Source: Escherichia phage PSD2001. Taken from it: a stretch of DNA of 64,000 nucleotides. The stretch lies in the sequence record OK254198.1; one strand, given 5' to 3'. Every line of letters starts with the position of its first letter. Position 1 is the first letter of the stretch. Under the pieces are notes generated by a model, which did no database searches, was not told the origin of the DNA, and was given only the letters and a program-made list of their open reading frames with translations. This document shows, piece after piece, positions 1,223 to 61,931 of this stretch. The translations under genes were made by a program, and so were the position numbers.

Positions 1223-4200
1223 ATGATGAGTGTTAAAGCCCCTTATGTAACCAGCTTACGGATTGATAAACTATCTGCTAACCAGGTTAGCATAAAATGG
1301 GATAATGTTGGCGCCAACTTTTATTATTTTGTTGAGATTGCTACGACAAAAGAAAATGGTGTTGCTATTCCAGAAGAAAATCTGTTATGGAGGAATTTAG
1401 GTTATACTCCAGACAATGAATGGTTCGAACAAGATTTTATTCGTCCAGTATCATTTTACAAAATGCGTGTTGCTGTTGCAGCAATGGGTTTTGAACAATC
1501 TGATTGGGTTTATACCGAAGAATTTGAAACCTTTGCAACTAACGCATACACATTTGAACACATGCGTGAGTTTACATTAACAAATAAATTCATCGAAGAA
1601 AAATTTACAAACAATAACCAAGCTTATATCAACTTTAATAATGATGCAATTATGGCATCGCTGATGTCTGAAGATTTTAGCTTTACTCCTGCATATTCTC
1701 ATTTGTCTTCAATTTCAAACTATGTATTAAAAGAAGACCAATACCACGAAATCCAGGGTAGCATTCAGCCAGTATGTAACGATGTTAATCGTACGATGAT
1801 TGCTGAACTCGGTGGTGTACTGTATTTGTTTGAACGATTCCAGACAACTGTCAAAGTCTCCAATGATAAAGGGCAGAACTGGTATTATGTAAAATTGTTT
1901 AATGACCGCATCGGCAACCCAGTATCGCGCACAATTTATTATCAATCAGATACGACAACTTATGTACTCGGATATGACCGAATTTTTTACGGCCGCAAAT
2001 CAAGTGACATAAGATGGTCTGCTGATGATGTTCGATTCAGTTCTCAGGATATAACATTTGCAAAAATTGGTTCGGATATCAATCTCGGATTTGATATTGA
2101 AATATTTGGCACATACGCAAGACTCCCGGCATACATCTCGACAATCGCTGAAGCAATTACTACGACCGATTCCATGATTTATGTTGCTGGTCGTGACCGC
2201 GTATACAAGGCTAAATCTTCTGATGCTCCAATTGATAACGACCCTAACTCCCCAACATTCGGTGAAAAATTATTTGAAGCTGGATATAGCACAATAAGCG
2301 GCAACCCAAAAGCTGTTTGTTACAAGATGGATTCAATTGACGGTGAAGTGTTTGCATTAATCACGGGTGAAGTAAAGGAAGAACGTCAAGACCCGACTAA
2401 GCCTGAAAACGTTGTCGATTCATTATCAAAGGGCGTTTATAAATTAAATACCGATACCGATACATGGACACGAGTTTTTGGCAATACAGAGGATGAACGC
2501 CGTCGTATTGAACATGGTTACACAAGCATGTCAACTGATGGAATTGAACTTTTTATCAGTTCAAGTAACTTTCGCTATTCCGTTGAGCCAGATACCGAAC
2601 TCCCTGCTAAGTATCCTGAAGAAGTTAACGAAGCAGTCAAATATGTGTATGATGAACAATGGATACATGACAAGCATTATTTGATGATGAGTTTTAGGTC
2701 GAATAAAGATTCAGGTTGGGAAGAGTTTAAACCTGGACGTATGTCATATTACGCTGAACCGTTCTTTAACTGGTCTCGCCGTGATGATACTCGTTGTTGG
2801 ATTACCACATCAGACAGAGCTCTGGTTGTATATAATGACATGCTGTATCAAAAGATTATCGATACCTTTGGTGGTTCATCCCCTGAACGTATTGTGCACG
2901 AATACTGGAATAAAGGTCAAGTAAAAGTTACTTCTCCTAACATCGAATTCAATGGCTTTAAAAAATATGCCTCGGGTATTATGTTACATAAAAATACTGG
3001 TGAGCTTATTGGTTATTTTGAATTTGACTATCGTATGCGTGATGAAGTTAGATTAATCTGGAAACCGAAAGAAGTTATGTTCACTGCAGAATTACAGAAC
3101 CAGGAACATGATATTCCATGGACCCCGGATAATGATGAACAAGAGAAAGACCCGGACTTGCGTCCTCTTTTAACAAAGATGGTTCCGGATAGTTATTTGC
3201 TCCAGGATAGCAACTTCGAAAAATTCTGTGAATATTATTTACAGTTTATCAGTGATGGTTCTGGCACATATTATAACAACCTTTTGAACTTGATTCGCAA
3301 CCAGTACCCACGCGAGGAAGATGCATGGGAATACCTTTGGAGTGAAATGTACAAAAGAAATATATATTTGTCAAAGACCAAGCGTGACGAAGTAGTTCGT
3401 TTCTTTGAAGCAAGACAGTCTGATTTTTGGGCAACCAAGGGGACTGAAGCATCCTATAAGTTTTTATTCAAATTGTTATATAATGAAGACGTTGAAATCG
3501 ATATTGAATCCAAGAACGGAACCGAGTATGACATAATCGTCGAATCTGATAATATCAGCGAAGATATTGTTGGGCAAACAATTTACACACCAACTGGCCG
3601 CAGTAACGTTACCTATATGGAGCGTGACTACAAACAGGGTAAATTGAGATGGCGTATCACAATTCATAACTTGCTTGGTCGCTTTATTGTTGGGCAAGAA
3701 ATTAAATCCGAAAGGACTTCCTTTGAAGGCATGATTGTTCAGGGCGTTCGCGGGAAAGAATTACTTAGCAATAACATCGATTATATCAACCGAAATCGTT
3801 CTTACTATGTAATGACCATTAAATCAAGTCTCCCAACATCTCGTTATCGTAATGACGTATTGCGATTTGTTCATCCGGTTGGATTTGGATTCGTTGGAAT
3901 TACATTATTGACAATGTTTGTTAATGCTGGTCTGTCATTAAAACACACAGAAACCATTATCAATAAACTGAACAACTATCGTTGGTCGTCGGGTATTCCG
4001 TCAGAATGGTGTGACCGTATCGCAGTTATTGGAGCCGATGGAAACATTGAGCATAATGCTGTTACAGGCGAAGCAGTATATAATATTGCTCCTAACGCAG
4101 GTTTACCGTTCCCATTACCGGCAGATTATGATGCCGAAAACGATTTTTCAGATTTTCATGGGACTCTCCCGTCTGAACGTCGTAAAAAATACAGTCCATT

Positions 4201-4321: not shown

Positions 4322-5318
4322 TTCATCTGTAGTTTATCGTTCGATAATTACCTCGAAATTTCGAACTGAAAAAATGTATAACTTTTATAAAATGATTGGT
4401 AATGAGCCCGACCAGAATACGATGTATGTAACGTTCGGTCGTGCTGAACCCTGGGCTTCGAATGAGAATGACCCGGGGTTCGCCCCTCCTTATCCGGTTG
4501 ACACAGCACAAGGTGTTGAAGATACTTGGACAAATATGATGGGTGCAGTCAAAGTTTATAAGTCAATGCTTGATTGTGTTGTCCCACGTAAAGACTGGGG
4601 CGATATCAGATATCCTAATCCGCTTAACTTCCAGGTAGGGGAAATTGTTGTAGCTAACAGTGCTCCATATAACCGAACTGATGTTGGTAAAGGTTGGATG
4701 GTTTATCGTTGTGTAGACGTTCCTGATGTTGGGACTTGCTCCATTTATTCTATTATCAATAAAGAAGAGTGTTTAAAACTCGGTGGTAAATGGACTGCAG
4801 AATATAACTCGACGAGAGCTCCAGCTGGGACTGGTGATACAGAAGGACGAGTAGATATGGGCGATGGTTATCTCTGGGAATATTTGTATGAGATTCCACC
4901 TGATGTATCCATCAACCGTTGTACTAACGAATATATTGTTGTTCCATGGCCTGAAGAAATCGAAGAAGACCCATCACGTTGGGGCTACAAAGACAATATC
5001 AGCTGGCAACAAGATGATTTCGGTTTAATATACAGAATCAAAGGATATACAATCAGATTTAAAGCATTTATGGATTCCATTTATTTCCCAGAGTTCAGCC
5101 TCCCGGGGAACAAAGGCTTCCGCCAGCTGTCGATTATATCCAACCCACTTGAAGTTAAAGTACATCCTAATGACCCAAATATCAAAGCAATCAAAGAATA
5201 CTACGATGCAATTGATTTGGACCGTCATTCCGGGGAAATGATTTATATGGAAAACCGTCCACCGATTATTCGTGCAATGGACCAGACAGAAGAAGTTAAC
5301 ATTATTTTTGAATTCTAA
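4314..5318 (+). CDS. 8: Baseplate wedge protein gp8
   Basis: 334 aa, same length as T4 gp8; N-terminus MNNSSVVYRSIITSKFRTEKM closely matches T4 gp8. Confidence 0.92.
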   Translation: MNNSSVVYRSIITSKFRTEKMYNFYKMIGNEPDQNTMYVTFGRAEPWASNENDPGFAPPYPVDTAQGVEDTWTNMMGAVKVYKSMLDCVVPRKDWGDIRYPNPLNFQVGEIVVANSAPYNRTDVGKGWMVYRCVDVPDVGTCSIYSIINKEECLKLGGKWTAEYNSTRAPAGTGDTEGRVDMGDGYLWEYLYEIPPDVSINRCTNEYIVVPWPEEIEEDPSRWGYKDNISWQQDDFGLIYRIKGYTIRFKAFMDSIYFPEFSLPGNKGFRQLSIISNPLEVKVHPNDPNIKAIKEYYDAIDLDRHSGEMIYMENRPPIIRAMDQTEEVNIIFEF

Positions 5319-5321
5319 CAA

Positions 5322-5343
5322 GGGACCTTCGGGTCCCTTTTTT
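5322..5343 (+). terminator. Rho-independent terminator after gene 8
   Basis: GGGACCTTCGGGTCCC hairpin followed by TTTTTT. Confidence 0.7.
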
Positions 5344-5347
5344 ATTC

Positions 5348-8728: not shown

Positions 8729-10278
8729 TGACAACGACTAACACGCTAAAACACATTAGCGATAAATCCGAATATAAAACATTCGACCCGACGGGAACAG
8801 CTTTCCCGTCGACTGTTACCAACGTACAAGAGGCTTTAGGGTCTCTTAATAAAATTGCGTTAGATGGATATATCCCAGCCTCTTCCGAAACGACCGCAGG
8901 GCTCATCAGACTAGCCACCACACAAGAAGTTATTGATGGTATTAGTCCAGACTCTGCAGTTACTCCAGCGACCTTAAAAGCTCGTTTAGACATCCCTACG
9001 CAAGCCACAGAAACTTATGTCGGTATTACCCGTTATGCAACTAATGCCGAAGCAATTGCCGGAACAGTAACCGATGCGGCTATTGTTCCATCTTCATTAA
9101 AAGCAACAATTGATGATGTTTTTACTGTTCGTGTCGGTACTGAAAATAACCTGGGTGTTCTTCGTATTAGTACCGAGGATGCAGCTTTAGCTGGTACAGA
9201 TGATACAACCGCTATGTCTCCGTTGAAAGTTGCTCTGGCAATTGGCAAAGCAACAGCAGCTCTTCCGACTTATTCAACTGCCACACAAACTGTTTCTGGT
9301 TTAGTACGAATTGCTACAAATGCTGAAGTGCAAGCAGGAACCCTGGGCGACGGTGTAGCAATTTCTCCGGCAGGTTTAAATGCTCGCACAGCAACACAAG
9401 ACCGCACAGGGATTATTCGTCTGGGCAACCAGTCAGAGATTAATAACAGTGCTGATGGTGTTGCAGTAACTGGCGCAACTCTTAATGGTCGTGGTGCTAC
9501 AACCGATATTCGTGGCGTTGTTAGATTAACTACTCAGGCTGGGGTTGCTCCTGGTGGTGATGGTGCCGGTGCACTGGCTTGGAACGCAGATGTAATCAAC
9601 ACTCGCGGTGGTCAACGAATTAATGGAAGTCTTTCTTTAGATTATATTTCCACCGGCAATTTTGATTCCAATACAGCTCATATGGGCGGTCAATTACTTT
9701 CGACACAGCGTTATGCTTCTGAACGGGTTCCAGTTGGAACGGTGATGATGTTCGCAGGTGATAGTGCTCCTCCTGGCTGGATTATGTGTCATGGTGGCAC
9801 CGTTAATGGTGACCAATTCCCTGACTATCGAAATACTGTTGGAACTCGTTTCGGTGGCGATTGGACCAACGTCGGTATTCCTGATATGCGTGGTTTGTTT
9901 GTTCGTGGTGCTGGTACCGGTGGACATATTCTGAATAACCGCGGTCAAGATGGTTATGGCAAAGACCGTTTGGGTGTTGGTTGTGATGGTTCATGGGTCG
10001 GTGGTGTACAAGCTCAGCAAATGTCATATCATAAACACGCGGGTGGTTGGGGTGAATACCAACGTAACGAAGCCCCATTTGGTGCATCAGTTTATCAGGG
10101 TTATCTGGGCACAAGAAAATATGCAGACTGGGATAACGCTTCATATTTTACTAACGATGGATTTGAACTCGGTGGCGGCAGAGATGCTTTAGGTACGTTA
10201 AACCGTGAAGGTCTTATTGGTTATGAAACTCGCCCATGGAATATGTCTTTAAACTATATTATCAAAATTCATTACTAA
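8728..10278 (+). CDS. 12: Short tail fibre protein gp12
   Basis: 516 aa; N-terminus (KFDPTGTAFP..., ATTQEVIDG...VTPATL) resembles T4 gp12; repetitive Gly/Thr/Ala-rich shaft. Confidence 0.9.
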   Translation: MTTTNTLKHISDKSEYKTFDPTGTAFPSTVTNVQEALGSLNKIALDGYIPASSETTAGLIRLATTQEVIDGISPDSAVTPATLKARLDIPTQATETYVGITRYATNAEAIAGTVTDAAIVPSSLKATIDDVFTVRVGTENNLGVLRISTEDAALAGTDDTTAMSPLKVALAIGKATAALPTYSTATQTVSGLVRIATNAEVQAGTLGDGVAISPAGLNARTATQDRTGIIRLGNQSEINNSADGVAVTGATLNGRGATTDIRGVVRLTTQAGVAPGGDGAGALAWNADVINTRGGQRINGSLSLDYISTGNFDSNTAHMGGQLLSTQRYASERVPVGTVMMFAGDSAPPGWIMCHGGTVNGDQFPDYRNTVGTRFGGDWTNVGIPDMRGLFVRGAGTGGHILNNRGQDGYGKDRLGVGCDGSWVGGVQAQQMSYHKHAGGWGEYQRNEAPFGASVYQGYLGTRKYADWDNASYFTNDGFELGGGRDALGTLNREGLIGYETRPWNMSLNYIIKIHY

Positions 10279-23438: not shown

Positions 23439-24998
23439 ATGAAAAAGAATGCATTAGTTCAAAAATGGTCCGCTCTGTTGGAAAACGAAGCTCTTCCGGA
23501 AATCGTTGGTGCTTCTAAACAAGCTATCATCGCTAAAATCTTTGAAAACCAGGAACAAGATATTCTGACCGCTCCTGAATACCGTGACGAAAAAATCTCC
23601 GAGGCATTTGGTTCTTTCCTGACCGAAGCTGAAATCGGTGGTGACCATGGTTATGATGCTACCAATATTGCTGCTGGCCAGACCTCTGGTGCAGTAACTC
23701 AGATTGGGCCGGCAGTTATGGGCATGGTTCGTCGTGCTATCCCGCATCTGATTGCGTTTGATATTTGCGGCGTACAGCCTCTGAACAACCCGACTGGCCA
23801 GGTATTTGCACTGCGTGCAGTATACGGTAAAGACCCTGTCGCTGCTGGTGCTAAAGAAGCTTTCCATCCGATGTATGCTCCGAACGCTATGTTCTCTGGT
23901 CAGGGCGCTGCTAAGACTTTTGAAGCACTGGCTGCAAGCAAAGTTCTGGAAGTTGGTAAAATTTATTCTCACTTCTTCGAAGCAACTGGTTCCGCGCACT
24001 TCCAGGCTGTTGAAGCTGTAACCGTTGATGCTGCTGCTACTGATGCTGCTAAACTTGACGCTGAAGTTACCAAACTGCTCGAAGCTGGTAAGCTGGCTGA
24101 ATTGGCTGAAGGTATGGCTACCTCCATCGCCGAACTGCAAGAAGGTTTTAACGGTTCCTCTGATAACCCGTGGAACGAAATGGGCTTCCGCATCGACAAA
24201 CAAGTTATCGAAGCTAAATCCCGTCAGCTGAAAGCAAGCTACTCCATCGAACTGGCACAGGACCTCCGCGCTGTTCATGGTATGGATGCTGATGCCGAAT
24301 TGAGTGGTATTCTGGCTACCGAAATTATGCTGGAAATCAACCGCGAAGTTATCGATTGGATTAACTACTCCGCACAGGTTGGTAAATCTGGTATGACCAA
24401 CACCGTTGGCGCTAAAGCTGGTGTGTTTGACTTCCAGGACCCGATTGATATCCGTGGTGCTCGTTGGGCTGGTGAAAGCTTCAAAGCTTTACTGTTCCAG
24501 ATTGATAAAGAAGCCGCTGAAATCGCTCGTCAGACCGGTCGTGGTGCAGGTAACTTCATCATCGCTTCCCGTAACGTAGTTAACGTGCTGGCTGCTGTTG
24601 ATACTTCTGTTAGTTATGCTGCTCAGGGTCTGGGTAAAGGTTTCAACGTTGACACCACTAAAGCTGTGTTCGCTGGTGTTCTGGGTGGCAAATACCGTGT
24701 CTATATCGACCAGTATGCTCGTGCAGATTACTTCACCATCGGTTACAAAGGCGCTAACGAAATGGATGCTGGTATCTACTACGCACCATATGTTGCACTG
24801 ACCCCGCTGCGTGGTTCTGACCCGAAAAACTTCCAGCCGGTTATGGGCTTCAAAACCCGTTACGGTATCGGTATCAACCCGTTTGCTGACCCTGCTGCTC
24901 AGGCTCCGACCAAGCGCATTCAGAACGGCATGCCGGACATCGTTAACAGCCTTGGCTTGAACGGTTACTTCCGCCGCGTATATGTTAAAGGAATTTAA
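23439..24998 (+). CDS. 23: Major capsid protein gp23
   Basis: 519 aa; long stretches identical to remembered T4 gp23 (e.g. GGDHGY.ATNIAAGQTSGAVTQIGPAVMGMVRRAIP). Confidence 0.95.
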   Translation: MKKNALVQKWSALLENEALPEIVGASKQAIIAKIFENQEQDILTAPEYRDEKISEAFGSFLTEAEIGGDHGYDATNIAAGQTSGAVTQIGPAVMGMVRRAIPHLIAFDICGVQPLNNPTGQVFALRAVYGKDPVAAGAKEAFHPMYAPNAMFSGQGAAKTFEALAASKVLEVGKIYSHFFEATGSAHFQAVEAVTVDAAATDAAKLDAEVTKLLEAGKLAELAEGMATSIAELQEGFNGSSDNPWNEMGFRIDKQVIEAKSRQLKASYSIELAQDLRAVHGMDADAELSGILATEIMLEINREVIDWINYSAQVGKSGMTNTVGAKAGVFDFQDPIDIRGARWAGESFKALLFQIDKEAAEIARQTGRGAGNFIIASRNVVNVLAAVDTSVSYAAQGLGKGFNVDTTKAVFAGVLGGKYRVYIDQYARADYFTIGYKGANEMDAGIYYAPYVALTPLRGSDPKNFQPVMGFKTRYGIGINPFADPAAQAPTKRIQNGMPDIVNSLGLNGYFRRVYVKGI

Positions 24999-25020
24999 TC
25001 CTAGATTAAGTTAAATAAAA

Positions 25021-25049
25021 AGGGACCCTTGAGGTCCCTTTCTTGTTTT
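25021..25049. terminator. Bidirectional terminator between gene 23 (plus) and the 93-aa minus-strand ORF
   Basis: AGGGACCCTTGAGGTCCCT hairpin flanked by an A-run and a T-rich tract. Confidence 0.65.
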
Positions 25050-25330
25050 CATACCATACCATTTAAATGAACTTCTACCCGGCGCTTGATGAGGTCTCTG
25101 AAGTTAACATTGTTTTCTTGAAGTTTCAACCAGTTACCATTTTTATCTTTAGTGTGAGTAGAATAATTACCATTCCACCAGAAATCAGTGTCATATGCTA
25201 AGTTTTCATATTTTTTAACTAATTTGTTCAGAGCATTACCATTAACACCATTTGGGTATTTGTTGACCAATGCAATAACTTCAATTTCCAATTTTTTAAA
25301 GGTGTTCAGAAGGAAAGTTGATTTGTTCAT
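25049..25330 (-). CDS. Hypothetical 93-aa protein on the antisense strand between genes 23 and 24
   Basis: ATG-initiated ORF with a GGAG RBS and its own early-type promoter; no recognisable motif. Confidence 0.5.
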   Translation of the reverse strand: MNKSTFLLNTFKKLEIEVIALVNKYPNGVNGNALNKLVKKYENLAYDTDFWWNGNYSTHTKDKNGNWLKLQENNVNFRDLIKRRVEVHLNGMV

Positions 25331-25370
25331 TTTAAACTCCAGGTTTTGTTTGTTAACTCAGTATGGAATC

Positions 25371-25400
25371 ATTATGTCTTATCTTAATCTGGTTGTAAAC
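25371..25400 (-). promoter_or_regulatory. Early-type promoter (GTTTAC, 18 nt, CATAAT) for the 93-aa ORF
   Basis: Minus strand GTTTACaaccagattaagataagaCATAAT; leader nearly identical to the one at 50734-50804. Confidence 0.5.
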
Positions 25401-25406
25401 AACTTT

Positions 25407-25414
25407 TATAAATA
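25407..25414 (+). promoter_or_regulatory. T4-type late promoter (TATAAATA) for gene 24
   Basis: Exact TATAAATA 26 nt upstream of the gp24 ATG. Confidence 0.6.
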
Positions 25415-25440: not shown

Positions 25441-26721
25441 ATGGCAAAGATTAACAAATTACTGCGCGAGTCAACTACCACTACCAGCAACTCCTTGGGC
25501 CGCCCGAATCTTGTTGCTTTGACCCGCGCTACAACCAAATTGATTTACCGCGATATTATCGCTGAACAACGTACGAACCAGCCAGTTGCGGCTCTGTACG
25601 GTGTTAAATATCTTACTCCTGATAATGAATTCAGTTTCCAAACTGGTGCCGTTTATGGTGGTGAAGTTGGTTCTAAAGACCGTGAAACTATCCCGGAATT
25701 TACAACCCCAACTCAAGCCGTAGCTAAAGGTGGATACATTAAATTCCAGAATATCGTTTATAAAGCTCTGGTTGATAATCCATTTGCATCGACTACCGAA
25801 ACTGTATTATCCGATGTTCTGCAAGAAGGTCTTATTGCATTAACTATTCGTTTGGTTCCTGATGCGGCGCACACCGAGAAATTTGAAGCCGGGGATGTTG
25901 AGATTAGTAATGCTGTATTCCAGGTCAACAAATGGAATGCTCCGGTTAAAACACGTAAATTGAAAACTGCATTAACTGTTGAGCTTGCTCAGGATATGGA
26001 AGCAAATGGGTTTAATGCTCCTGCTTTCCTGGAAGACTTGCTTGCCACTATTATGGCAGATGAAATTAACAAAGATGTTCTTCAGTCTCTTATTACCGTT
26101 TCCAAGCGTTATAAAGTAACTGGTGTTTCTGACAATGGCGTCATCGATTTAACATATGATGCAGCTCCAGAAGGCGCACGTAAACTGTACGAACTAGTTT
26201 GTGAAATGAACTCCGAGATTCAGAAAACTACATCTTATTCCGGTACCTTTGTTGTTGCCTCTAGCCGTGTTGCTGCTATGTTGGCTGGCTCTGGCTGGCT
26301 GAAACATAAACCAGAAGATGAACAATGGCTTCCTGAAACAGCGTACGGTTATTTGATTAATGGCCTCCCTGTATTCTGTGATGTTAACAGTCCATTAGAT
26401 TATGTAACCGTTGGCGTTAAAGAAAATTACGGCGGAAACGAAGTCGTAGGCTCAATCTTCTATGCTCCTTATACCGAAGGTCTGGACTTAGATGATGAAG
26501 AGCATGTAGGCGCGTTTAAGGTCATTGTGGACCCTGACAGTTTGCAACCAGCTATCTCTTTGATGGTTCGTTATGCACTTTCAGCTAACCCGTACACCGT
26601 TGCTAAAGACGATAAAGAAGCTCGTATTATCGACGCAACCAATATGGATTTAATGGCCGGTCAGAGCAATATGTCTTATCTGCTCGGTGTTAAACTTCCG
26701 CCAATCATTTATGAGGCGTAA
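25441..26721 (+). CDS. 24: Capsid vertex protein gp24 (copy 1, T4-like)
   Basis: 426 aa; N-terminus MAKINKLLRESTTTTSNSLGRPNLVALTRATTKLIY closely matches T4 gp24. Confidence 0.92.
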   Translation: MAKINKLLRESTTTTSNSLGRPNLVALTRATTKLIYRDIIAEQRTNQPVAALYGVKYLTPDNEFSFQTGAVYGGEVGSKDRETIPEFTTPTQAVAKGGYIKFQNIVYKALVDNPFASTTETVLSDVLQEGLIALTIRLVPDAAHTEKFEAGDVEISNAVFQVNKWNAPVKTRKLKTALTVELAQDMEANGFNAPAFLEDLLATIMADEINKDVLQSLITVSKRYKVTGVSDNGVIDLTYDAAPEGARKLYELVCEMNSEIQKTTSYSGTFVVASSRVAAMLAGSGWLKHKPEDEQWLPETAYGYLINGLPVFCDVNSPLDYVTVGVKENYGGNEVVGSIFYAPYTEGLDLDDEEHVGAFKVIVDPDSLQPAISLMVRYALSANPYTVAKDDKEARIIDATNMDLMAGQSNMSYLLGVKLPPIIYEA

Positions 26722-28005
26722 ATGCAAAAGATTAACGCACTAATTCACGAATCAACATTAACGGCGGCCAACCAGGTCGCCCGTCCTAATTTACTTTCTT
26801 ATACTCAGGCTACGAATAAACGAATTTTTAAAGCGCTCGTGGCTGAACAGAAAACTACCCAGCCTGTTGCTGCGTTGTATGGTGTTCGTGTTCTGAACCC
26901 AGATGATAAAATGACTTATCTTGGCGGAGCAACATTTGCAGGTCAGATTGGTATGTTCGAGCGTAAGAATATCCCAGAATTTACGAACAAAGACGAAGAT
27001 TATGCAGTCGGTGATATGTTCCAGTTTGAAAGTGTTGTGTTCAAAGTTTTGGAAGCATCACCATTCGCCGGGACTCTCGAAACTGATTTGGGTGAAGTTA
27101 TTTCTGAAGCCATTGCGGCTGGCCATATAAGAATGATGTCAGATGCAGCTTTCACTGATAAATTTGAAAAAGGTCATCCTGAAATTGCTGAAGCTGGTTT
27201 TCGTATTGATAAATGGCAGACTGAAGTTAAATCCAGAAAGCTGAAAACTTCTTTAACTGTTGAGCTTGCTCAAGACCTGGAAGCAAACGGTTTCGATGCA
27301 ACAGACTTCATCGATAATATTCTCGGCATTCAAATGGCAGAGGAAATTAATAAGGATGTACTGCAATCCCTTATTACTGTCAGTTCTCGCTTCAAGGTGC
27401 AAGGTGTTTCTGAAAAAGGTGTATTGAATCTAACTGACCCGAAATATGATAATGCTCAGGACCGTGCGCGAACCCTGTATTATTATATGTGTGAAATGAA
27501 CTCTGCAGTTCAACGTCAGACTTCGTTTGCTGGCACATATGCAGTCGCTTCTTCCCGTTGTGCAGCTATTTTAGCAGCTTCTGGTTGGGTTGAGAAAAAG
27601 GAAGACCAGGATGAATTAGCCTATGGCGTTCTGAAGAACGGTTTACCACTTTATGCAGATATGAATAGTCCATGTGATTATGTTATTGTCGGTGTAAATG
27701 CTGATATGGGTGAAGGTCAGACGGTCGCATCTTTGTATTATGCGCCTTATACGGAAGGTCTTAGCGAAGTTGATGATGAGGGTGATACCTCGGTCGGGGA
27801 ATTCAAGGTTATTGTTGACCCTGAAAGCTTGCAGCCTACTGTTGCGCTATTAGCTCGTTATGCATTGACAGCGAACCCTTATACGGTTGCGAAAGATGAT
27901 AAAGAAGCTCGCATTATTGATGGTGCTGATATGGATAAGATGGCTAACCAAAGCCAATTGAGTTCTTATCTTGGTGTTAAACTTCCACCACTGGAAAAAG
28001 AATAA
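26722..28005 (+). CDS. Capsid vertex protein gp24 paralog (copy 2, diverged)
   Basis: 427 aa, collinear with copy 1 (shared blocks RKLKT.LTVELAQD.EANGF, EINKDVLQSLITVS, ANPYTVAKDDKEARIID); starts at the ATG directly after the copy 1 stop. Confidence 0.85.
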   Translation: MQKINALIHESTLTAANQVARPNLLSYTQATNKRIFKALVAEQKTTQPVAALYGVRVLNPDDKMTYLGGATFAGQIGMFERKNIPEFTNKDEDYAVGDMFQFESVVFKVLEASPFAGTLETDLGEVISEAIAAGHIRMMSDAAFTDKFEKGHPEIAEAGFRIDKWQTEVKSRKLKTSLTVELAQDLEANGFDATDFIDNILGIQMAEEINKDVLQSLITVSSRFKVQGVSEKGVLNLTDPKYDNAQDRARTLYYYMCEMNSAVQRQTSFAGTYAVASSRCAAILAASGWVEKKEDQDELAYGVLKNGLPLYADMNSPCDYVIVGVNADMGEGQTVASLYYAPYTEGLSEVDDEGDTSVGEFKVIVDPESLQPTVALLARYALTANPYTVAKDDKEARIIDGADMDKMANQSQLSSYLGVKLPPLEKE

Positions 28006-29674: not shown

Positions 29675-29773
29675 AGGAGTTTTATGCCAGATGGACAATT
29701 GTTATGGTATGACCACAAAGACTCACTGGAGAAAGGGCCCAAGACAACGTTTGCTCAGTACCATAAAAACAAA

Positions 29774-29794
29774 GGGACCCGAAGGTCCCTTTTT
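29774..29794. terminator. Terminator after hoc
   Basis: GGGACCCGAAGGTCCC hairpin with flanking A/T runs; same sequence as the terminator at 41507. Confidence 0.65.
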
Positions 29795-29796
29795 AA

Positions 29797-30930
29797 TTAA
29801 TAAACGTAATCGTATATAATACCAGCTTCTAAAGCGGTGCGATGAATAATTCGACCATTACGAGATTCTTGTACATCAACCTCTGGATAGTCGGTAATCA
29901 TTTTTTGAAGGGTATATCGGTGCAAATAATACGGGCTATCTGGAGCATCAGTTTTCCAGTCTTGTCCAGCAAGAGTCATTTTCTGAATTTCGTCCATAAC
30001 CCACCAACCACACCAGATATAAGCTGAATTACGAACTGGCAGCGGATGAACGTAAGGTAATTCGCCATCTGGAACAGGTGCTACTTTAGCTGTGATAGTT
30101 ACATTACCAGTTTTTGTGACAGTCGCCGGGTTATAATCTGTAGCAGATACAACAACAGAAACTTCAATTACCTGTGAACCTTCAGCGCTTGTATCGATTG
30201 CTAGAGTATCCGTGGTGCCAACTACAGGAGAACCGTCTTTCTTCCAAGAATAGGCAAAAGTAGCTCCACTCGGTGCGCCAACTACATCTGCTTTAAATGA
30301 AGCTAGGGTGTCTTCCGGAACATTAATCGAAGCTGGGGTTAATGTCACAGAAACACCTGTCATAGTTTTCTTAACAAAAGTTACCGCAGCTCCTTTAGTT
30401 GCGGTGCCATTATTATAATCGGGTGCAGAAACAGTAACTTCACAGTTCAATGTATAATTTGCTTCTGCTGATTCGGTAACAGTAATAGTTTTACCGGTTT
30501 GACCTGGGATTACGCTAGTGTTACGTTTCCAAACATAAGCGATTGTTGCACCAGAAGGAGCGCCTGTCACGTTAGCAGTAACAACTTGAGATTGCCCCAC
30601 TTCTTTAGTAACAGAGGCCGGGTCTAAAGTCAATGTAATAGCAGGCATTGTTTTATTCTGGATAGTTAAAGTTGTCTCAGCTTCAGCTGTTTCTGGTTCG
30701 CCGTCCGCTGGTGTAGTTGTTGCAACAACTTTAATAGTCTTACTGCCTGCTGGACCAACAGCAATATAATCCATTGCAGCAGTCACAGAAGATTGAGGAA
30801 CGCCATCAACGGTCCAGACAAATGATTCGGTACCTTCAGCTGCAGCACCAGAACCGGTCGCAGTGAAATTGGTTGTTGCTCCAATAACGGCCGTAGCCGC
30901 CAAAGGAGCAATAGTTACGGTATAAGCCAT
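29797..30930 (-). CDS. hoc: Highly immunogenic outer capsid protein Hoc
   Basis: 377 aa vs 376 aa in T4; Ig-like repeats and conserved C-terminal capsid-binding block (ELPYVHPLP...YIWCGWWVMDEIQKMT). Confidence 0.92.
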   Translation of the reverse strand: MAYTVTIAPLAATAVIGATTNFTATGSGAAAEGTESFVWTVDGVPQSSVTAAMDYIAVGPAGSKTIKVVATTTPADGEPETAEAETTLTIQNKTMPAITLTLDPASVTKEVGQSQVVTANVTGAPSGATIAYVWKRNTSVIPGQTGKTITVTESAEANYTLNCEVTVSAPDYNNGTATKGAAVTFVKKTMTGVSVTLTPASINVPEDTLASFKADVVGAPSGATFAYSWKKDGSPVVGTTDTLAIDTSAEGSQVIEVSVVVSATDYNPATVTKTGNVTITAKVAPVPDGELPYVHPLPVRNSAYIWCGWWVMDEIQKMTLAGQDWKTDAPDSPYYLHRYTLQKMITDYPEVDVQESRNGRIIHRTALEAGIIYDYVY

Positions 30931-40540: not shown

Positions 40541-41499
40541 TGTTTACTTTACAAGAATTTCAAACACAAGCGATTAATATCGACTTACAAAGGAATAACC
40601 TTTTTAGTGTGGTCTTCGCGACCGCACCTTCCTCTAAATCTCAGAATCTTCTGGACCAGTTTGGTGGCGCATTATTCAGCAACCTTCCTGTTAACTCAGA
40701 TTGGTTCGGATTAACACAAGGTGACTTAACTCAAGGGATAACAACTCTTGTTACTGCCGGAACACAAAAGCTTATTCGTAAATCAGGGATAAGCAAATAT
40801 CTTATCGGGGCAATGAGTAACCGTGTTGTGCAATCATTATTAGGTGAATTTGAGGTTGGTACTTACCTGCTAGATTTCTTTAATATGGCTTATCCAACGG
40901 CTGGTCTATTAGTTCACTCTGTTAAGCTTCCGGATAACACATTGAACTACGAAATGGACCTTAACCATAATGCACCAAATATCAAGATAACAGGGAGAGA
41001 ATATTCTCCGTTGGTATTGAGCTTTAGAATGGATTCAGAGGCAGGGAACTTCAGAGCATTTAACGATTGGGTTAACTCTGTACAGGACCCAGTTACCCAG
41101 CTAAGGGCTTTGCCTGAAGACGTTGAAGCTGATATTCAGGTTAACCTGCACTCACGTAACGGATTACCGCATACGGTTGTTATGTTAACTGGTTGTGTTC
41201 CTGTAAGTGTATCAGCGCCTGAATTGAGTTATGAAGGGGATAATCAGATAGCTACATTTGATGTAACTTTTGCTTATCGCGTTATGTCAACGGGAGCAGT
41301 GGGAAGAGCTGCTGCACTGGAATGGTTGGAAGATAAGGTTATTAAGGGTGTATCTGGTATTAGTTCAGATAACAACTTGAACGCAGAAGTTGCCAAATTG
41401 AGCCGCTTGTCTGGTGCTCAATCTGGATTAACAAGTCTGTACAATACGTTCACTGGTTCTGGGAGAACAGTCTCTGGTGGAAGTCAACGTATATTATAA
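40540..41499 (+). CDS. 54: Baseplate tail tube initiator gp54
   Basis: 319 aa vs 320 aa in T4. Confidence 0.88.
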   Translation: MFTLQEFQTQAINIDLQRNNLFSVVFATAPSSKSQNLLDQFGGALFSNLPVNSDWFGLTQGDLTQGITTLVTAGTQKLIRKSGISKYLIGAMSNRVVQSLLGEFEVGTYLLDFFNMAYPTAGLLVHSVKLPDNTLNYEMDLNHNAPNIKITGREYSPLVLSFRMDSEAGNFRAFNDWVNSVQDPVTQLRALPEDVEADIQVNLHSRNGLPHTVVMLTGCVPVSVSAPELSYEGDNQIATFDVTFAYRVMSTGAVGRAAALEWLEDKVIKGVSGISSDNNLNAEVAKLSRLSGAQSGLTSLYNTFTGSGRTVSGGSQRIL

Positions 41500-41506
41500 A
41501 AAGAAA

Positions 41507-41528
41507 GGGACCCGAAGGTCCCTTTTTT
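41507..41528. terminator. Terminator after gene 54
   Basis: GGGACCCGAAGGTCCC hairpin followed by TTTTTT; A-run upstream. Confidence 0.7.
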
Positions 41529-41817
41529 ATTTGCGGAATGAAATGAAACCTGCTGCAGTCATTACAACTTCTTTTTTAGCAAAGACTGTAATTGCAATTG
41601 GTGCTTCAGATTCAAGTTGCCCAGTTACTACACCATTAAAAATATTTTCTGTTTGTTCAGAATTTACAAAGTTTTCAACAGGGCGAAGGTCAAACTTCTT
41701 ATCTTCGCCAAACACGCGCCGTAGTTCATTACCCACCGCGCTGTCAAACTCTTCTGAAGCCGGGATAACATTCTCAACTACCAGTTCCTGACCATTAAAG
41801 CGAAAAGATGATTTCAT
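41527..41817 (-). CDS. Hypothetical protein (alt.-x position)
   Basis: 96 aa from the ATG at 41817 with a GAGGA RBS; the upstream ATG at 41850 lies within the promoter -10. Confidence 0.5.
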   Translation of the reverse strand: MKSSFRFNGQELVVENVIPASEEFDSAVGNELRRVFGEDKKFDLRPVENFVNSEQTENIFNGVVTGQLESEAPIAITVFAKKEVVMTAAGFISFRK

Positions 41818-45850: not shown

Positions 45851-45858
45851 TATTTATA
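45851..45858 (-). promoter_or_regulatory. T4-type late promoter (TATAAATA) for the alt pair
   Basis: Minus strand CGTATAAATACATC, 26 nt upstream of the paralog 2 ATG. Confidence 0.5.
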
Positions 45859-45866
45859 CGAAAAAA

Positions 45867-45890
45867 GGGCCGAAGCCCTTTTGTTATTTT
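45867..45890. terminator. Terminator after gene 30
   Basis: GGGCCGAAGCCC hairpin; on the minus strand it is followed by TTTTTTCG. Confidence 0.65.
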
Positions 45891-49929: not shown

Positions 49930-50295
49930 TTAGATATCAAATTCATTAAGAACTACATCAAAGATTGCTTCCAGGTGTTCAGGTTTTGCTTTGTTGCTCA
50001 GGATGTGACGAATCCAAGTTTTAACCAGAAGCTTGCGATTAACACCATTCCAGCAAGGATGAGTCCCTAAATCACGTTCACGGAAATCATCATCTAAAGC
50101 AATTTTAAAAGTTGAACCAGTCATAGTGATTGAAAGAGTGATACCATTTTCAAATCGCATATAAACGTAGTTAGGAGTCATATATTGTTCAATTTCACAT
50201 ACTGAACCGTTTTGATGTTTCCACAAGCAAATAACTTCAGAAGAACCTGGGATGCAGTTAGAAACATATTTGCGTTCAAAGTTGATGTAGTTCAT
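49930..50295 (-). CDS. Hypothetical protein
   Basis: 121-aa ORF preceded by the shared leader and GGAG RBS. Confidence 0.55.
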   Translation of the reverse strand: MNYINFERKYVSNCIPGSSEVICLWKHQNGSVCEIEQYMTPNYVYMRFENGITLSITMTGSTFKIALDDDFRERDLGTHPCWNGVNRKLLVKTWIRHILSNKAKPEHLEAIFDVVLNEFDI

Positions 50296-50331
50296 TTTAT
50301 TCTCCAGTGTTTGGTTTGTTGGTACAGGTCT

Positions 50332-50360
50332 ATAATATCATAACCTGTACCAAAGTAAAC
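50332..50360 (-). promoter_or_regulatory. Early-type promoter (GTTTAC, 17 nt, TATTAT) embedded in a 9-bp inverted repeat
   Basis: Minus strand GTTTACtttggtacaggttatgaTATTATAGACCTGTACC; the arms GGTACAGGT (50321-50329) and ACCTGTACC (50343-50351) bracket the -10. Confidence 0.45.
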
Positions 50361-50364
50361 TGTT

Positions 50365-50733
50365 TTATGCGACTTTAATCCAATTATCTAAATTTAATTC
50401 ACCCTTAGCTTTCATTTTTTCAATCAAATCATCAGCAGTAGTGCGACCATTTTGATACCATGTAACATCTTCAGAATAACCAGTTTCTTCATCTTCATAG
50501 GTCTTACAACGAATCTTACCAGTTATGATAGTTTTCAGTTCGTAGGTATCACCAGTAAAAAAGTTTGTTACCATAATTTTCCAGGAGAAGTCATCAGAAG
50601 GACCTTCTGGAGTCATGCAAGAAACGAATTCAAATTGTTCTTTATACAAGTGCCATTGCATTTCTTTAGTTTCAATGGCTTTGTAACCGTCGTGGTCTTT
50701 ACCTTTGATGTATGAGTTAAGATTGATTTTCAT
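50365..50733 (-). CDS. Hypothetical protein
   Basis: 122-aa ORF preceded by the promoter-leader cassette. Confidence 0.55.
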   Translation of the reverse strand: MKINLNSYIKGKDHDGYKAIETKEMQWHLYKEQFEFVSCMTPEGPSDDFSWKIMVTNFFTGDTYELKTIITGKIRCKTYEDEETGYSEDVTWYQNGRTTADDLIEKMKAKGELNLDNWIKVA

Positions 50734-50774
50734 TTTATTCTCCAGTGTTTTATTGTGTAACTCAGTATGGAATC

Positions 50775-50804
50775 ATTATGCACTGGACCAACCCTGTTGT
50801 AAAC
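50775..50804 (-). promoter_or_regulatory. Early-type promoter (GTTTAC, 18 nt, CATAAT) with conserved leader
   Basis: Minus strand GTTTACaacagggttggtccagtgCATAATGATTCCATACTGAGTTACAC, near-identical to the cassette at 25331-25400. Confidence 0.5.
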
Positions 50805-50813
50805 CCCTTTATG

Positions 50814-50842
50814 GAAAATAAAAAGGGACTCCGAAGAGTCCC
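50814..50842 (-). terminator. Rho-independent terminator after the 53-aa basic protein gene
   Basis: Minus strand GGGACTCTTCGGAGTCCC followed by TTTTTATTTT. Confidence 0.65.
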
Positions 50843-50847
50843 TGAAC

Positions 50848-52644: not shown

Positions 52645-53225
52645 TATTCACCACAAAATTCGTTAATGTTTTCCCAGTTCAATTTGTCTAGACTACGCTT
52701 AGGCACATTGAACACCTCAATTCCCGCGTTCTTCAGGATATCATCCCAACCAGGAATATTCTTATCATACGTTTCACAGTAAACCAATTTCTTGATTCCT
52801 GATTGAGAAATTGCCTTTGCACAATCAGGGCAAGGAGAAAGCGTCACATACATAGTAGCGCCTTCAATTGACGAACCCATTCTGGCAGCGAACAGAATCG
52901 CATTAAGCTCGGCATGAATTTCGTTGTTCTTTGACCAGGCCGAATGAGCTTCGCGATGAGCTTTCGCCAATACAAAACGGTCAACCTGACTGAATCTCAC
53001 GCATTCTGGCTTATGACCAGGGATGAGAACAGGTTTAGGTTTATTCAGTAACCAACCTTGCTCTTCCGCATGCTCGCAACAGTTAACCCCACCTGCAGGG
53101 GAACCATTATACCCTGTAGAAATAATGCGGCCATTCTTTTCAATAACAGCTCCCACTTTCCAGGAGCAACATTTGGATTCTTGAGATACAAGGTATGCGA
53201 TTTGCAGAACAGTAGTTGGTTTCAT
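52644..53225 (-). CDS. cd: dCMP deaminase
   Basis: 193 aa; zinc-binding motifs HAELNAI and PCPDCAKAI typical of the cytidine/deoxycytidylate deaminase family. Confidence 0.88.
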   Translation of the reverse strand: MKPTTVLQIAYLVSQESKCCSWKVGAVIEKNGRIISTGYNGSPAGGVNCCEHAEEQGWLLNKPKPVLIPGHKPECVRFSQVDRFVLAKAHREAHSAWSKNNEIHAELNAILFAARMGSSIEGATMYVTLSPCPDCAKAISQSGIKKLVYCETYDKNIPGWDDILKNAGIEVFNVPKRSLDKLNWENINEFCGE

Positions 53226-57562: not shown

Positions 57563-57596
57563 AATAATTTCCTCAAATTTTATAATCCGTGGGAAC

Positions 57597-57626
57597 ATTA
57601 TACTCTGCTCCCATGAGTTTGTACAC
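57597..57626 (-). promoter_or_regulatory. Early-type promoter (GTGTAC, 18 nt, TATAAT)
   Basis: Minus strand GTGTACaaactcatgggagcagagTATAATGTTCCC. Confidence 0.4.
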
Positions 57627-57729
57627 TACTTTCCAAAAAGACCTTGGACACATAAAGTGGCCGCAATTCCAAAACAAAAACAGAATGCACCAAATCTAAC
57701 AATATCCCAACCAAGGCTACAGGTCTCTA

Positions 57730-59111: not shown

Positions 59112-59142
59112 GTTTTAGTCCTCATCAGTAGTTGATGGAACC

Positions 59143-59172
59143 ATTATGTATAGAAAGGAGGGGCTTGTACAC
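59143..59172 (-). promoter_or_regulatory. Early-type promoter (GTGTAC, 18 nt, CATAAT) with its -35 in a terminator hairpin loop
   Basis: Minus strand GGGGTGTACAAGCCCCtcctttctataCATAATGGTTCC. Confidence 0.4.
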
Positions 59173-59181
59173 CCCTTTTTT
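59160..59181. terminator. GC hairpin (GGGG CTTGTACA CCCC) with T-run after rnlA
   Basis: 4-bp GC stem; the T-run (TTTTTT) is on the plus strand, A/G-rich on the other side. Confidence 0.4.
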
Positions 59182-59182
59182 A

Positions 59183-60319: not shown

Positions 60320-60726
60320 TTCTTCACCTTATGTTGGTAATTCCACGGGGGATTAAAAAGCTTGATGAACATCGGCTCTTCCAGAGACATCGTTTCGACT
60401 GACATTGTGCCAAGTTCATTGGTCATTGACAGATTGAAACATTGTCGTGCATAGAATACCACCTTTTTACCTTCTTGTAAAGCTTCATGTATCATCCGGG
60501 ATTTGTTTGAATCGCTCGTCTGGTCGATTCGGTTAATCGCAGTCCGGTAATAGTTGATACGCTTCTTAAGGTTGTTCGTCTTACCAATATACACTAGTTC
60601 ATCATCAACTGAAATAGCATAGATAACATTTTTCTTGTTCGCGAGAGTAAGAATAGGGATTTTACCATCGACTAACTCTAACTCCGCGTATTTTATAAAA
60701 CTGTATTCATCAGCGATTTGTTTCAT
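60316..60726 (-). CDS. denA: Endonuclease II (GIY-YIG family)
   Basis: 136 aa from ATG at 60726, same length as T4 EndoII; GIY-YIG-like VIYAISVDDELVYIGKTNN; the track start at 60732 is TTG. Confidence 0.85.
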   Translation of the reverse strand: MKQIADEYSFIKYAELELVDGKIPILTLANKKNVIYAISVDDELVYIGKTNNLKKRINYYRTAINRIDQTSDSNKSRMIHEALQEGKKVVFYARQCFNLSMTNELGTMSVETMSLEEPMFIKLFNPPWNYQHKVKK

Positions 60727-60735
60727 GGGCAAAAA

Positions 60736-60750
60736 GGGCCGAAGCCCTTT
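60736..60750 (-). terminator. Hairpin terminator between nrdB and denA
   Basis: Minus strand GGGCTTCGGCCC followed by TTTTTGCCC immediately before the denA ATG. Confidence 0.5.
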
Positions 60751-60752
60751 CC

Positions 60753-61931
60753 TTATAGATATTTACGGAAACCAGCAAGAACATTCTCATCGACGTCATT
60801 GTCAATCTGGGCTACCAGGTAAGCAGACAACTCAACTTCTTGTGGTGCAGATTGCACATTATCAGAGTTAAGATATTCGCGAATCCATGGAATCGGGTGC
60901 TTAGTAGATTCTAACACGATTTCACAAGGGAGACCGCATTGCTTCATACGAGAAACCGTCAGGTAATCGATGAACCGGTTAAGAATCTCGACGCTCAACC
61001 CAGGGAGTCCACCGTCTTTAAACAGATGCACGGCCCATTCTTTTTCCTGGCGATTAACTTCCATGAAAATGGCTGCGGCTTCTGCTTCACATTCGTGTGC
61101 AATTTTAACCCATTCGTCGCCGTCGGTGCCAGTCTGCAACTGACGAAGAATATATTGGGTCCCCTTAAGGTGGAGCTGTTCATCACGGGCGATGAACTTC
61201 ATTATCTTCGCATTGCCTTCCATGATTTCCATGTTCTTATGGAAGTTGAAAGTACAGGCAAAAGATACATAAAAACGAATGGCTTCCAGGGCATTAATGA
61301 CATGCAGACAGAGATAAAGAGACTTCATCAATGCTCGTTTGGCGATAGCTTCTTGTTTGATAGCTCGTTCCAAACGTTCGTCCGCTTCGGGAGTTTCTTT
61401 GGCCAGTTCAACAAAAGCAATCTGGTTTTGCCATTGACGAGTTTTATTCAGAACATCATCATAGTAATGGCCAATGGATTCTGCTCGCTTCATGATTGCA
61501 TCATCTAACAGGATTTCGTCGAATACCTTCGCCGGGTCCGTATAGAGATTTCGCATGATGTGCGTATAAGAACGAGAGTGAATTGTCTCGCTGAATGTCC
61601 AGGTCTGAATCCATGTATCAAGACTCGGGTCGGAAACTAATGCGGCTAATGCTGCAGCTGGAGCACGACCCTGTATACTATCCAGAAGTGATTGGTATTT
61701 CAGGTTATTTGTAAAAATATTTTGCTGATGGACAGGAAGCTTATTAAATTGGGCTCCATCCATCATCAGGTTTACTTCCTCAGGTCGCCAGAAGAATGAT
61801 AATTGCCTTTCTGTTAATTCTTCGAAAACTTTATGACGCTGGATATCATAACGGGCGATGCCCAATCCAGAACCGAAGAACATCGGCTCGGCTAAAACAT
61901 CCACCGGAGTGGTATTAAAAACTGTACTCAT
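60753..61931 (-). CDS. nrdB: Ribonucleotide reductase small subunit NrdB (class Ia beta)
   Basis: 392 aa, uninterrupted; diiron-tyrosyl radical protein signature blocks. Confidence 0.92.
   Translation of the reverse strand: MSTVFNTTPVDVLAEPMFFGSGLGIARYDIQRHKVFEELTERQLSFFWRPEEVNLMMDGAQFNKLPVHQQNIFTNNLKYQSLLDSIQGRAPAAALAALVSDPSLDTWIQTWTFSETIHSRSYTHIMRNLYTDPAKVFDEILLDDAIMKRAESIGHYYDDVLNKTRQWQNQIAFVELAKETPEADERLERAIKQEAIAKRALMKSLYLCLHVINALEAIRFYVSFACTFNFHKNMEIMEGNAKIMKFIARDEQLHLKGTQYILRQLQTGTDGDEWVKIAHECEAEAAAIFMEVNRQEKEWAVHLFKDGGLPGLSVEILNRFIDYLTVSRMKQCGLPCEIVLESTKHPIPWIREYLNSDNVQSAPQEVELSAYLVAQIDNDVDENVLAGFRKYL

Follow-up and report, generated by a model that had tools for sequence, protein, structure and literature searches.

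A repeated, predicted early promoter–leader cassette with a near-invariant start-of-transcript block in a Gaprivervirus genome

Results

The window analysed here is a stretch of 64,000 nucleotides from Escherichia phage PSD2001 (OK254198.1), and coordinates refer to it unless another genome is named. It derives from a Gaprivervirus, a VR7/SP18-like T4-type phage of the family Straboviridae, and its closest record is Escherichia phage P896. The surroundings of the two sites discussed below are 97.5–98.9% identical to P896 and 92–96% identical to VR7, SP18, VR20, VR25 and VR26. At the first site, a 93-aa ORF (25049–25330, minus strand) lies antisense between g23 (23439–24998), which encodes the major capsid protein, and the first g24 gene of a tandem pair (25441–26721, plus strand). 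It corresponds to VR7ORF190c and to JS98 orf173. Its protein has no Pfam family and no PDB relative, and its sole family is phrog_6003, of unknown function. A bidirectional terminator hairpin (25017–25043) separates the 3′ ends of g23 and the ORF. The two g24 (capsid vertex) paralogues, of which the second occupies 26722–28005 on the plus strand, are named 24(1) and 24(2) in VR7; the repeat finder aligns their 3′ ends with 71% identity across 198 nt. The second site precedes the gp30.8 gene (50365–50733, minus strand; PF06019, E 8e-44), with the gp30.7 gene (49930–50295, minus strand; PF06919, E 6e-52) next to it.

The initial annotation had described near-identical stretches of 70 bp upstream of the 93-aa ORF and of the gp30.8 gene that share a −35 element, a CATAAT −10 hexamer and a CTGGAG ribosome binding site (RBS). 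Alignment and an exact 23-mer search confirm that this likeness is real. A 23-nt core, TAACTCAGTATGGAATCATTATG, is found exactly twice in the window, at 25354–25376 and 50758–50780, on the minus strand in both cases. Allowing up to 3 mismatches reveals no further copy in the window, and 100 dinucleotide shuffles gave none. Without gaps, the two sites are alike over 34 nt at 88% (25343–25376 versus 50747–50780; repeat family D11). The core had been described as a leader core. Its 23/23 identity stands, but it is not confined to the leader: it includes the −10 hexamer and therefore spans about −12 to +11. The similarity is also not limited to generic promoter and RBS positions, the limitation that the initial annotation had named as the case against itself, since it extends well past the −35, −10 and Shine–Dalgarno (SD) elements.

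Read on the minus strand, both copies contain GTTTACAAC, a 17-nt spacer counted from TTTACA, and then CATAAT; the spacer sequences are unrelated. The downstream part comprises at both sites CATAATGATTCCATACTGAGTTA, an A/C-rich leader, CTGGAG and the ATG, with GGAG 6 nt before the ATG. TTTACA-17-CATAAT matches the consensus at 10 of 12 positions and predicts a sigma70-type early promoter at both copies; a TGn (extended −10) is absent before either −10. From the usual 7-nt distance to the −10, transcripts are predicted to start at the A that follows CC in CCATACTG, at 25364 and 50768.

In copy 1, the −35 element GTTTACA (25394–25400, minus strand) of the 93-aa ORF early promoter is conserved in JS98 and Shf125875. 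The −10 hexamer CATAAT runs from 25376 to 25371 and is followed by the discriminator GATTCC and the initial transcribed sequence ATACTGAGTTA. The leader ACAAACAAAACCTGGAGTTTAAA (25331–25353, minus strand) is A/C-rich and unstructured (MFE −1.0 kcal/mol, z +0.9 for the identical P896 copy), has its SD GGAG at 25340 to 25337 and shows a partial match to the RegB consensus. On the opposite strand, the box TATAAATA (25407–25414, plus strand) lies 26 nt before the g24 ATG and is present in JS98 and Shf125875 too; judged by the T4 late consensus, it probably serves as the T4-type late promoter of g24. This box is arranged back-to-back with the 93-aa early promoter. Its reverse complement makes up the A/T-rich stretch immediately before the early −35, where copy 1 reads tttatttataaaag. 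No stem-loop is found upstream of copy 1, complementarity around its −10 is restricted to 3 bp, and the sole hairpin of the unit follows the ORF.

Copy 2 shows the full order of terminator hairpin, AT-rich region, −35, −10, SD and ATG. The terminator hairpin AGGGACTCTTCGGAGTCCCT, followed by a T-run (50824–50843, minus strand), is located directly upstream of the gp30.8 promoter and is conserved in T4 and IME08. The −35 element GTTTACA occupies 50798–50804 and the −10 hexamer runs from 50780 to 50775, both on the minus strand. The leader CACAATAAAACACT continues into GGAGAATAAAATG, which holds the SD (50731–50757, minus strand), and is predicted to be unfolded (MFE 0.0 for the identical P896 copy).

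A third partial copy, which had been proposed before the ORF at 49930–50295, is also borne out. Positions 50291–50312 and 50729–50750 are identical at 22 of 22 positions (TTCATTTTATTCTCCAGTGTTT; repeat family D6), so that the SD/RegB-site block AAACACTGGAGAATAAAATGAA before gp30.7 (50291–50312, minus strand) equals the gp30.8 block. The copy is partial because the RBS and RegB module is common to both genes and is here attached to a different promoter. The gp30.7 early promoter is of another type, TTTACT-16-TATTAT (50321–50359, minus strand), and the core is absent from it. Its −10 TATTAT is bracketed by a 9-bp inverted repeat, GGTACAGGT/ACCTGTACC (50321–50351, minus strand). The same layout is found in T4 (about 9860–9915 of locus L030) and IME08 (locus L028), and an analogous repeat, GGTAGAG/CTCTACC, is seen at T4 cd.2. 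At the 93-aa ORF, positions 25326–25347 match the 22-nt RBS block of gp30.8 and gp30.7 at 82%.

This block bears on RegB. The strong RegB/S1 cleavage consensus in T4 early Shine–Dalgarno regions is GG*AGRAYARAA (Uzan & Miller 2010, PMC3014915). The sequence GGAGAATAAAA before both gp30.8 and gp30.7 agrees fully with GGAGRAYARAA (11/11) in an unstructured leader and is predicted to be a RegB site, whereas the 93-aa gene site GGAGTTTAAAA agrees at 9 of 11 positions and differs at the other two. P896, the nearest relative, encodes RegB. In P896, GGAGAATAAAATG is present 12 times, always on the minus (early) strand, and 9 of these 12 lie behind cores of the type described here.

Both stretches are members of one early promoter–leader family, for which we coined the name class A; family counts refer to the whole P896 genome. 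The genome-wide search for the core and the search in related phages that had been suggested for it revealed a multi-copy family of about 14 members per genome in P896, with 10 exact and 4 near copies of the 23-mer. The 11-mer CATACTGAGTT of the core is found at 14 P896 promoters, all on the early (minus) strand and 18–38 nt upstream of an SD and ATG; by our own calculation, about 0.08 occurrences are expected by chance. A run of four successive small genes at 150.8–152.6 kb of P896, beside tRNA genes, has a copy before each. Many copies directly follow a terminator hairpin, as window copy 2 does, and at others the stem-loop is absent. Every copy is in register with the start of an early-strand ORF and none has terminal repeats or target duplications, and selfish mobile DNA of a MITE or homing-like kind was rejected.

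In an exact scan of IMG/VR, VR20, VR25 and VR26 contain 6–7 exact 23-mers each, and none was found outside these three phages. BLAST with a 90-bp cassette yields 6–11 places per Gaprivervirus record. An 18-mer scan of IMG/VR adds only Morganella phage MP1 and five metagenome matches; none of the five has a promoter context, and we regard them as chance matches. The start sequence CATACTGAGTTA(A/C)CAAA is found at at least 6 promoters of MP1 and also in a Providencia phage, both Gualtarvirus, where −10 and discriminator differ from class A. The MP1 paper gives promoters as a list of 12 found by MEME. A few Dhakavirus and Tequatrovirus genomes have the core in single copy. Among the frd.1 (DUF5417) genes, those of P896, IME341, ECp13 and MP1 carry the core and that of T4 lacks it. 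From this distribution, the frd.1 core looks like an old copy of a type that later expanded in Gaprivervirus. The core sequence was not found in the literature searched; the VR7 genome papers and the T4 review PMC150520 lie outside that coverage, and an earlier description is possible.

The information content across the 14 copies shows one main block, G-CATAATGATTCCATACTGAGTTA, which coincides with the core. Lesser peaks are AAAAAgt-GTgTACA upstream, with AAAAAgt as the AT-rich element before the −35 in the family consensus, and cCAAATaAA downstream. We compared nine orthologue groups across P896, the window, VR7, VR20, VR25 and VR26. Variable columns make up 1.9% of the core, 28% of the spacer and 4.3% of the first 36 nt of coding sequence, where the variability of the upstream region is inflated by swapped promoter halves. 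Leader differences are seen in 7 of the 9 groups. A variant copy, GATTTCAT, is present in VR7-type phages. Each cassette combines an A/T-rich upstream region, a T4-type −35 (GTTTACA or GTGTACA) and a 17-nt spacer of free sequence with the near-invariant CATAAT-GATTCC-ATACTGAGTTA, made up of the −10, the discriminator and, by prediction, the initial ~11 bases of the transcript. The leader that follows is short, A/C-rich and unstructured and usually ends in GGAGAATAAAATG, which would be at once the RBS and an optimal RegB/S1 target.

RNA structure was considered for the leader. For the class A 5′ UTRs, 13 of 14 have an MFE of 0 to −2.7 kcal/mol and 12 of 14 have positive z-scores, that is, they are less structured than their shuffles. 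The one exception is the srd copy with −6.7 kcal/mol and z −1.1. A search of the cassettes against Rfam returned no family, and the sub-threshold matches, far below gathering scores, are driven by the terminator hairpin. With 13 of 14 leaders near-unfolded, an RNA structure or riboswitch in the leader was rejected. A hairpin around the −10 was likewise rejected as the cause of core conservation, because the window copies pair over only 3–4 bp, so that it cannot account for them. Beyond the window copies, inverted repeats of at least 6 bp around the −10 are enriched: they are present at 9 of 35 predicted P896 early promoters, where permutation gives a mean of 3.3 and a maximum of 7. Three class A copies have a spacer exactly complementary to the core, TCAGTATGGA/TCCATACTGA.

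Class A is not the only early promoter type in this genome. A profile built from the 14 P896 copies matches the window strongly only at the two reported sites (E 1e-22 and 3e-17), and other early promoters score weakly. A second type, here named class B, consists of a −10 plus g.t.CCATCAACTACTGA(T)GAGGA, in which start and leader are conserved and lead directly to the SD; in P896 it is found at 52933, 61337, 91762, 103877, 134844, 155552 and other positions. The presence of class B and of inverted-repeat promoters in the same genome makes class A one sub-family and not the sole early type. Weak profile matches at 57590–57637 and 59126–59182 of the window are likely class B counterparts. The class A start ATACTGAGTTA and the class B start CTACTGAGGAG are alike at 8 of 11 positions, and on sequence grounds class A may be derived from class B by leader extension. 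Near-identical terminator-like hairpins, AAAGGGACCCGAAGGTCCCTTTTT and AAAAGGGCCGAAGCCCTTT, recur in the window at 5311–5346, 29763–29798 and 41496–41531, and also at 45853–45887 and 60722–60756. These hairpins are to the stem-loops what the repeated promoters are to the early promoters.

Traces of recombination are found at several cassettes. Among the 14 copies, the similarity of upstream halves and that of downstream halves are uncorrelated (Spearman rho 0.03). Two copies 54 kb apart are 95% identical in terminator, −35 and spacer and differ in their leaders, and at one locus the P896 spacer is that of a copy 54 kb off. VR26 lacks exactly one promoter-to-promoter unit of 369 bp with one small gene; the HSPs on either side share 50 nt at the promoter, and the promoter left in VR26 is a hybrid with the crossover within CCATACTGAGTTA(C)CAAATAAA. 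At another gene, the upstream halves are unrelated between P896 and VR20, VR25 and VR26, and the core and leader are the same. In ECp13 (Tequatrovirus), a segment of ~430 bp of Gaprivervirus/Dhakavirus type (236–665 of locus L027) replaces the T4 frd.2 region. It consists of one gene (MMETGKFY...) and a class A promoter, and both its junctions lie at gene starts or SD blocks; at the right junction, the sequence becomes T4-like again from the GGAGAATAAAATG block that precedes frd.1. The segment seems to have been exchanged between genera. Crossover tracts are short throughout, at 13–50 nt. In T4 itself (about 3010–3080 of locus L040, between frd.2 and frd.1), an unannotated short ORF, MFAPYIMAAVMLVCLYLLIKAC, is located between an early promoter and frd.1; it is missing in ECp13 and in Gaprivervirus.

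Discussion

The class A elements are probably early promoter–leader cassettes for host sigma70 that double as recombination homology, as in the model of promoter-early stem-loop elements (PeSLs). A cassette of this kind would fire immediately after infection and give an open, well-translated mRNA, which RegB would inactivate within minutes. Being identical over 13–50 nt, present about 14 times per genome and in one orientation, the blocks would act as portable homology. Recombination inside them would delete, insert or swap the small genes that they flank and would homogenise the promoters. The events found in VR26, VR20, VR25 and ECp13 are of the kind that the PeSL model predicts (PMC2839356, PMC4122927).

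The initial annotation had gone further and suggested that cassette-mediated recombination brought the 93-aa gene to the capsid cluster. This is not supported, as the gene occupies the same g23–g24 site across three genera. In favour of a transplantation of gene and cassette into this gap, for example from the gene 30 region, the unit is self-contained, with promoter, ORF and bidirectional terminator antisense to late genes, the g23–g24 gap varies among T4-type phages (in T4 it presumably holds segD) and cassette-bounded gene exchange is seen elsewhere, in VR26 and ECp13. The position of the homologues speaks against it. In the three contexts examined, VR7, JS98 (Dhakavirus, 62% aa identity) and Shf125875 (Mosigvirus, 36% aa identity), the gene has the same antisense position between g23 and g24. 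Among 237 records the homologues are single-copy, with one record showing a second match. Window and JS98 are collinear in a single 2.7-kb HSP, and the divergence of the ORF scales with that of its neighbours (97% and 84% for gp23, 89% and 69% for gp24). The upstream promoter half tttatttataaaagttGTTTACA is orthologous in all three genera. From the shared site, the collinearity and the shared promoter half it follows that any insertion predates both the split of the genera and the local class A core, and we judge a transplantation very unlikely.

What differs between the genera is the other half of the promoter. A 23-nt upstream stretch with the g24 late box is identical in JS98 and nearly so in Shf125875, whereas the rest of the early promoter differs; the upstream half is probably frozen because of its dual use as early upstream region and as g24 late box TATAAATA. 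From the spacer onward, JS98 and Shf125875 read TACTATAGAC(C/T)TATCAA... without the class A core. At gp30.8, IME08 and T4 likewise keep the terminator hairpin and SD block with another −10 and other start sequences. Since relatives have another −10 and start at both loci, the class A core is an acquisition of ~60 bp in the Gaprivervirus lineage, with the gene unmoved. We infer that within this Gaprivervirus-specific patch of spacer, −10, start region and leader, it was the downstream half of the promoter that was exchanged or homogenised, and not the gene. For the 93-aa gene, the downstream half of an old promoter would have been converted to the family type with the gene already there.

Promoter function and recombination together leave the most striking feature aside. 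Contacts of sigma70 end short of +11, so that this account leaves the invariance to +11 or +16 unexplained. The block from about −1 to +16, CATACTGAGTTAMCAAA, with 5′-AUACUGAGUUAMCAAA as its 11–16 invariant transcribed bases, might be a regulatory signal that marks an immediate-early regulon, a reading that is compatible with the cassette and adds a function to it. In one possible form, it would act in DNA as a pause site at which sigma70 is re-captured by a second −10-like hexamer, CATACT, which lies 5 nt after CATAAT. Sigma re-capture causes a promoter-proximal pause at lambdoid late promoters. In other possible forms, the block would be an operator for the shut-off of T4-type early promoters, whose mechanism is stated to be unknown (PMC2988021), or it would act in RNA, where a phage or host factor would recognise it as the 5′ end common to these mRNAs. 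In favour of a signal, coding sequence varies more than the core does, the block has sharp boundaries, and frd.1 carries it in four genera. MP1, a distant Gualtarvirus, and Providencia phages retain the start sequence despite a different −10 and discriminator. Against this, the block has no dyad symmetry, no RNA structure and no Rfam family, the variant GATTTCAT occurs in VR7-type phages, and no candidate for a binding factor emerged. Early promoters with different start sequences exist in the same genome, which makes the class A motif unnecessary for early expression. On balance, we consider a regulatory signal possible but rather unlikely. If true, it would account for the conservation above that of coding sequence, for the sharing between Gaprivervirus and Gualtarvirus and for the spread to new Gaprivervirus promoters.

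The invariance could also be the product of concerted evolution alone, in which frequent gene conversion keeps the block identical and nothing depends on the exact bases past the −10. Recombination is very active in T4-type phages, and conversion-like events are visible here in the spacer shared with a copy 54 kb away and in the mosaic halves. Conversion should leave ragged tract ends, yet the edges are sharp and equal in 14 copies. Nor would drift with conversion predict that Gaprivervirus and Gualtarvirus, long separated, keep the same sequence. The occurrence of the same 16 bases in such distant lineages argues for selection on the sequence and not for gene conversion alone, an explanation that we consider unlikely. 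Chance or a generic promoter and RBS consensus can practically be set aside. Part of the third copy, GGAGAATAAAATG, is indeed a functional consensus of many early genes, but neither the 23/23 identity, with none in 100 shuffles, nor 14 11-mers against about 0.08 expected are reconciled with it. The preferred reading thus remains that of early promoter–leader cassettes that serve as recombination homology.

PeSLs have been described for RB49/phi1 (Arbiol et al. 2010, PMC2839356) and for PST/T4 and nt-1/KVP40 (Comeau et al. 2014, PMC4122927). The proposed likeness to these elements is upheld by the many copies, by the full layout at copy 2 and by the indel and replacement junctions inside the modules. 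Class A shares with PeSLs the composite intergenic module, in which an AT-rich region leads to a sigma70-type early promoter, an SD and an ATG, preceded at some class A copies by the stem-loop terminator. In both, a genome contains numerous copies, most of them ahead of small ORFs without a known function, with tandem arrays in variable regions. Both are located at indel and replacement junctions of close relatives, with some copies in conserved structural modules beside non-essential genes. In contrast to the published PeSLs, where promoter hexamers and stem-loop are conserved, class A shows its strongest conservation in the 23-nt −10/start block. Window copy 1 has no upstream stem-loop and is therefore only a partial PeSL. 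The RB49/phi1 PeSLs were studied with reporter fusions and inverse PCR (PMC2839356). No PeSL report for Gaprivervirus was found in the literature searched.

The T4 early promoters (Pe) are of the "uber" UP/−35/TGn/−10 type (Hinton 2010, PMC2988021). Class A resembles them in the GTTTAC-type −35, the 17-bp spacer, the TAnAAT-type −10, the A/T-rich upstream region, the orientation and the gene classes. It differs in that the window copies have no TGn and most class A copies have C, not T, at −12, and the orthologous T4 30.8 promoter has another −10 and start sequence. We know of no T4 early-promoter consensus that extends to +11. The 93-aa unit can further be compared with the morons of lambdoid phages, which are promoter-ORF-terminator units inserted between conserved genes. 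Like a moron, it has its own promoter and terminator, which predict autonomous transcription, and is wedged between two late structural genes. In contrast to a moron, it belongs to the early transcription of a lytic phage, not to a prophage, and it is old and vertically inherited across three genera.

These findings extend the PeSL idea to another genus, with promoter–terminator modules as both expression units and crossover points. They add sequence-resolved cases: the loss of one gene between adjacent cassettes, the conversion of half a promoter and an apparent inter-genus exchange that ends at the RBS block. For annotation, the lesson is not to deduce a joint movement of downstream genes from identical leaders that lie 25 kb apart. 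PeSLs and T4 early promoters are already well described, and what is unusual here is the invariant start-of-transcript block. Its invariant 11–16 nt represent a defined target for mutagenesis, which could bear on the control or shut-off of early transcription in T4-type phages.
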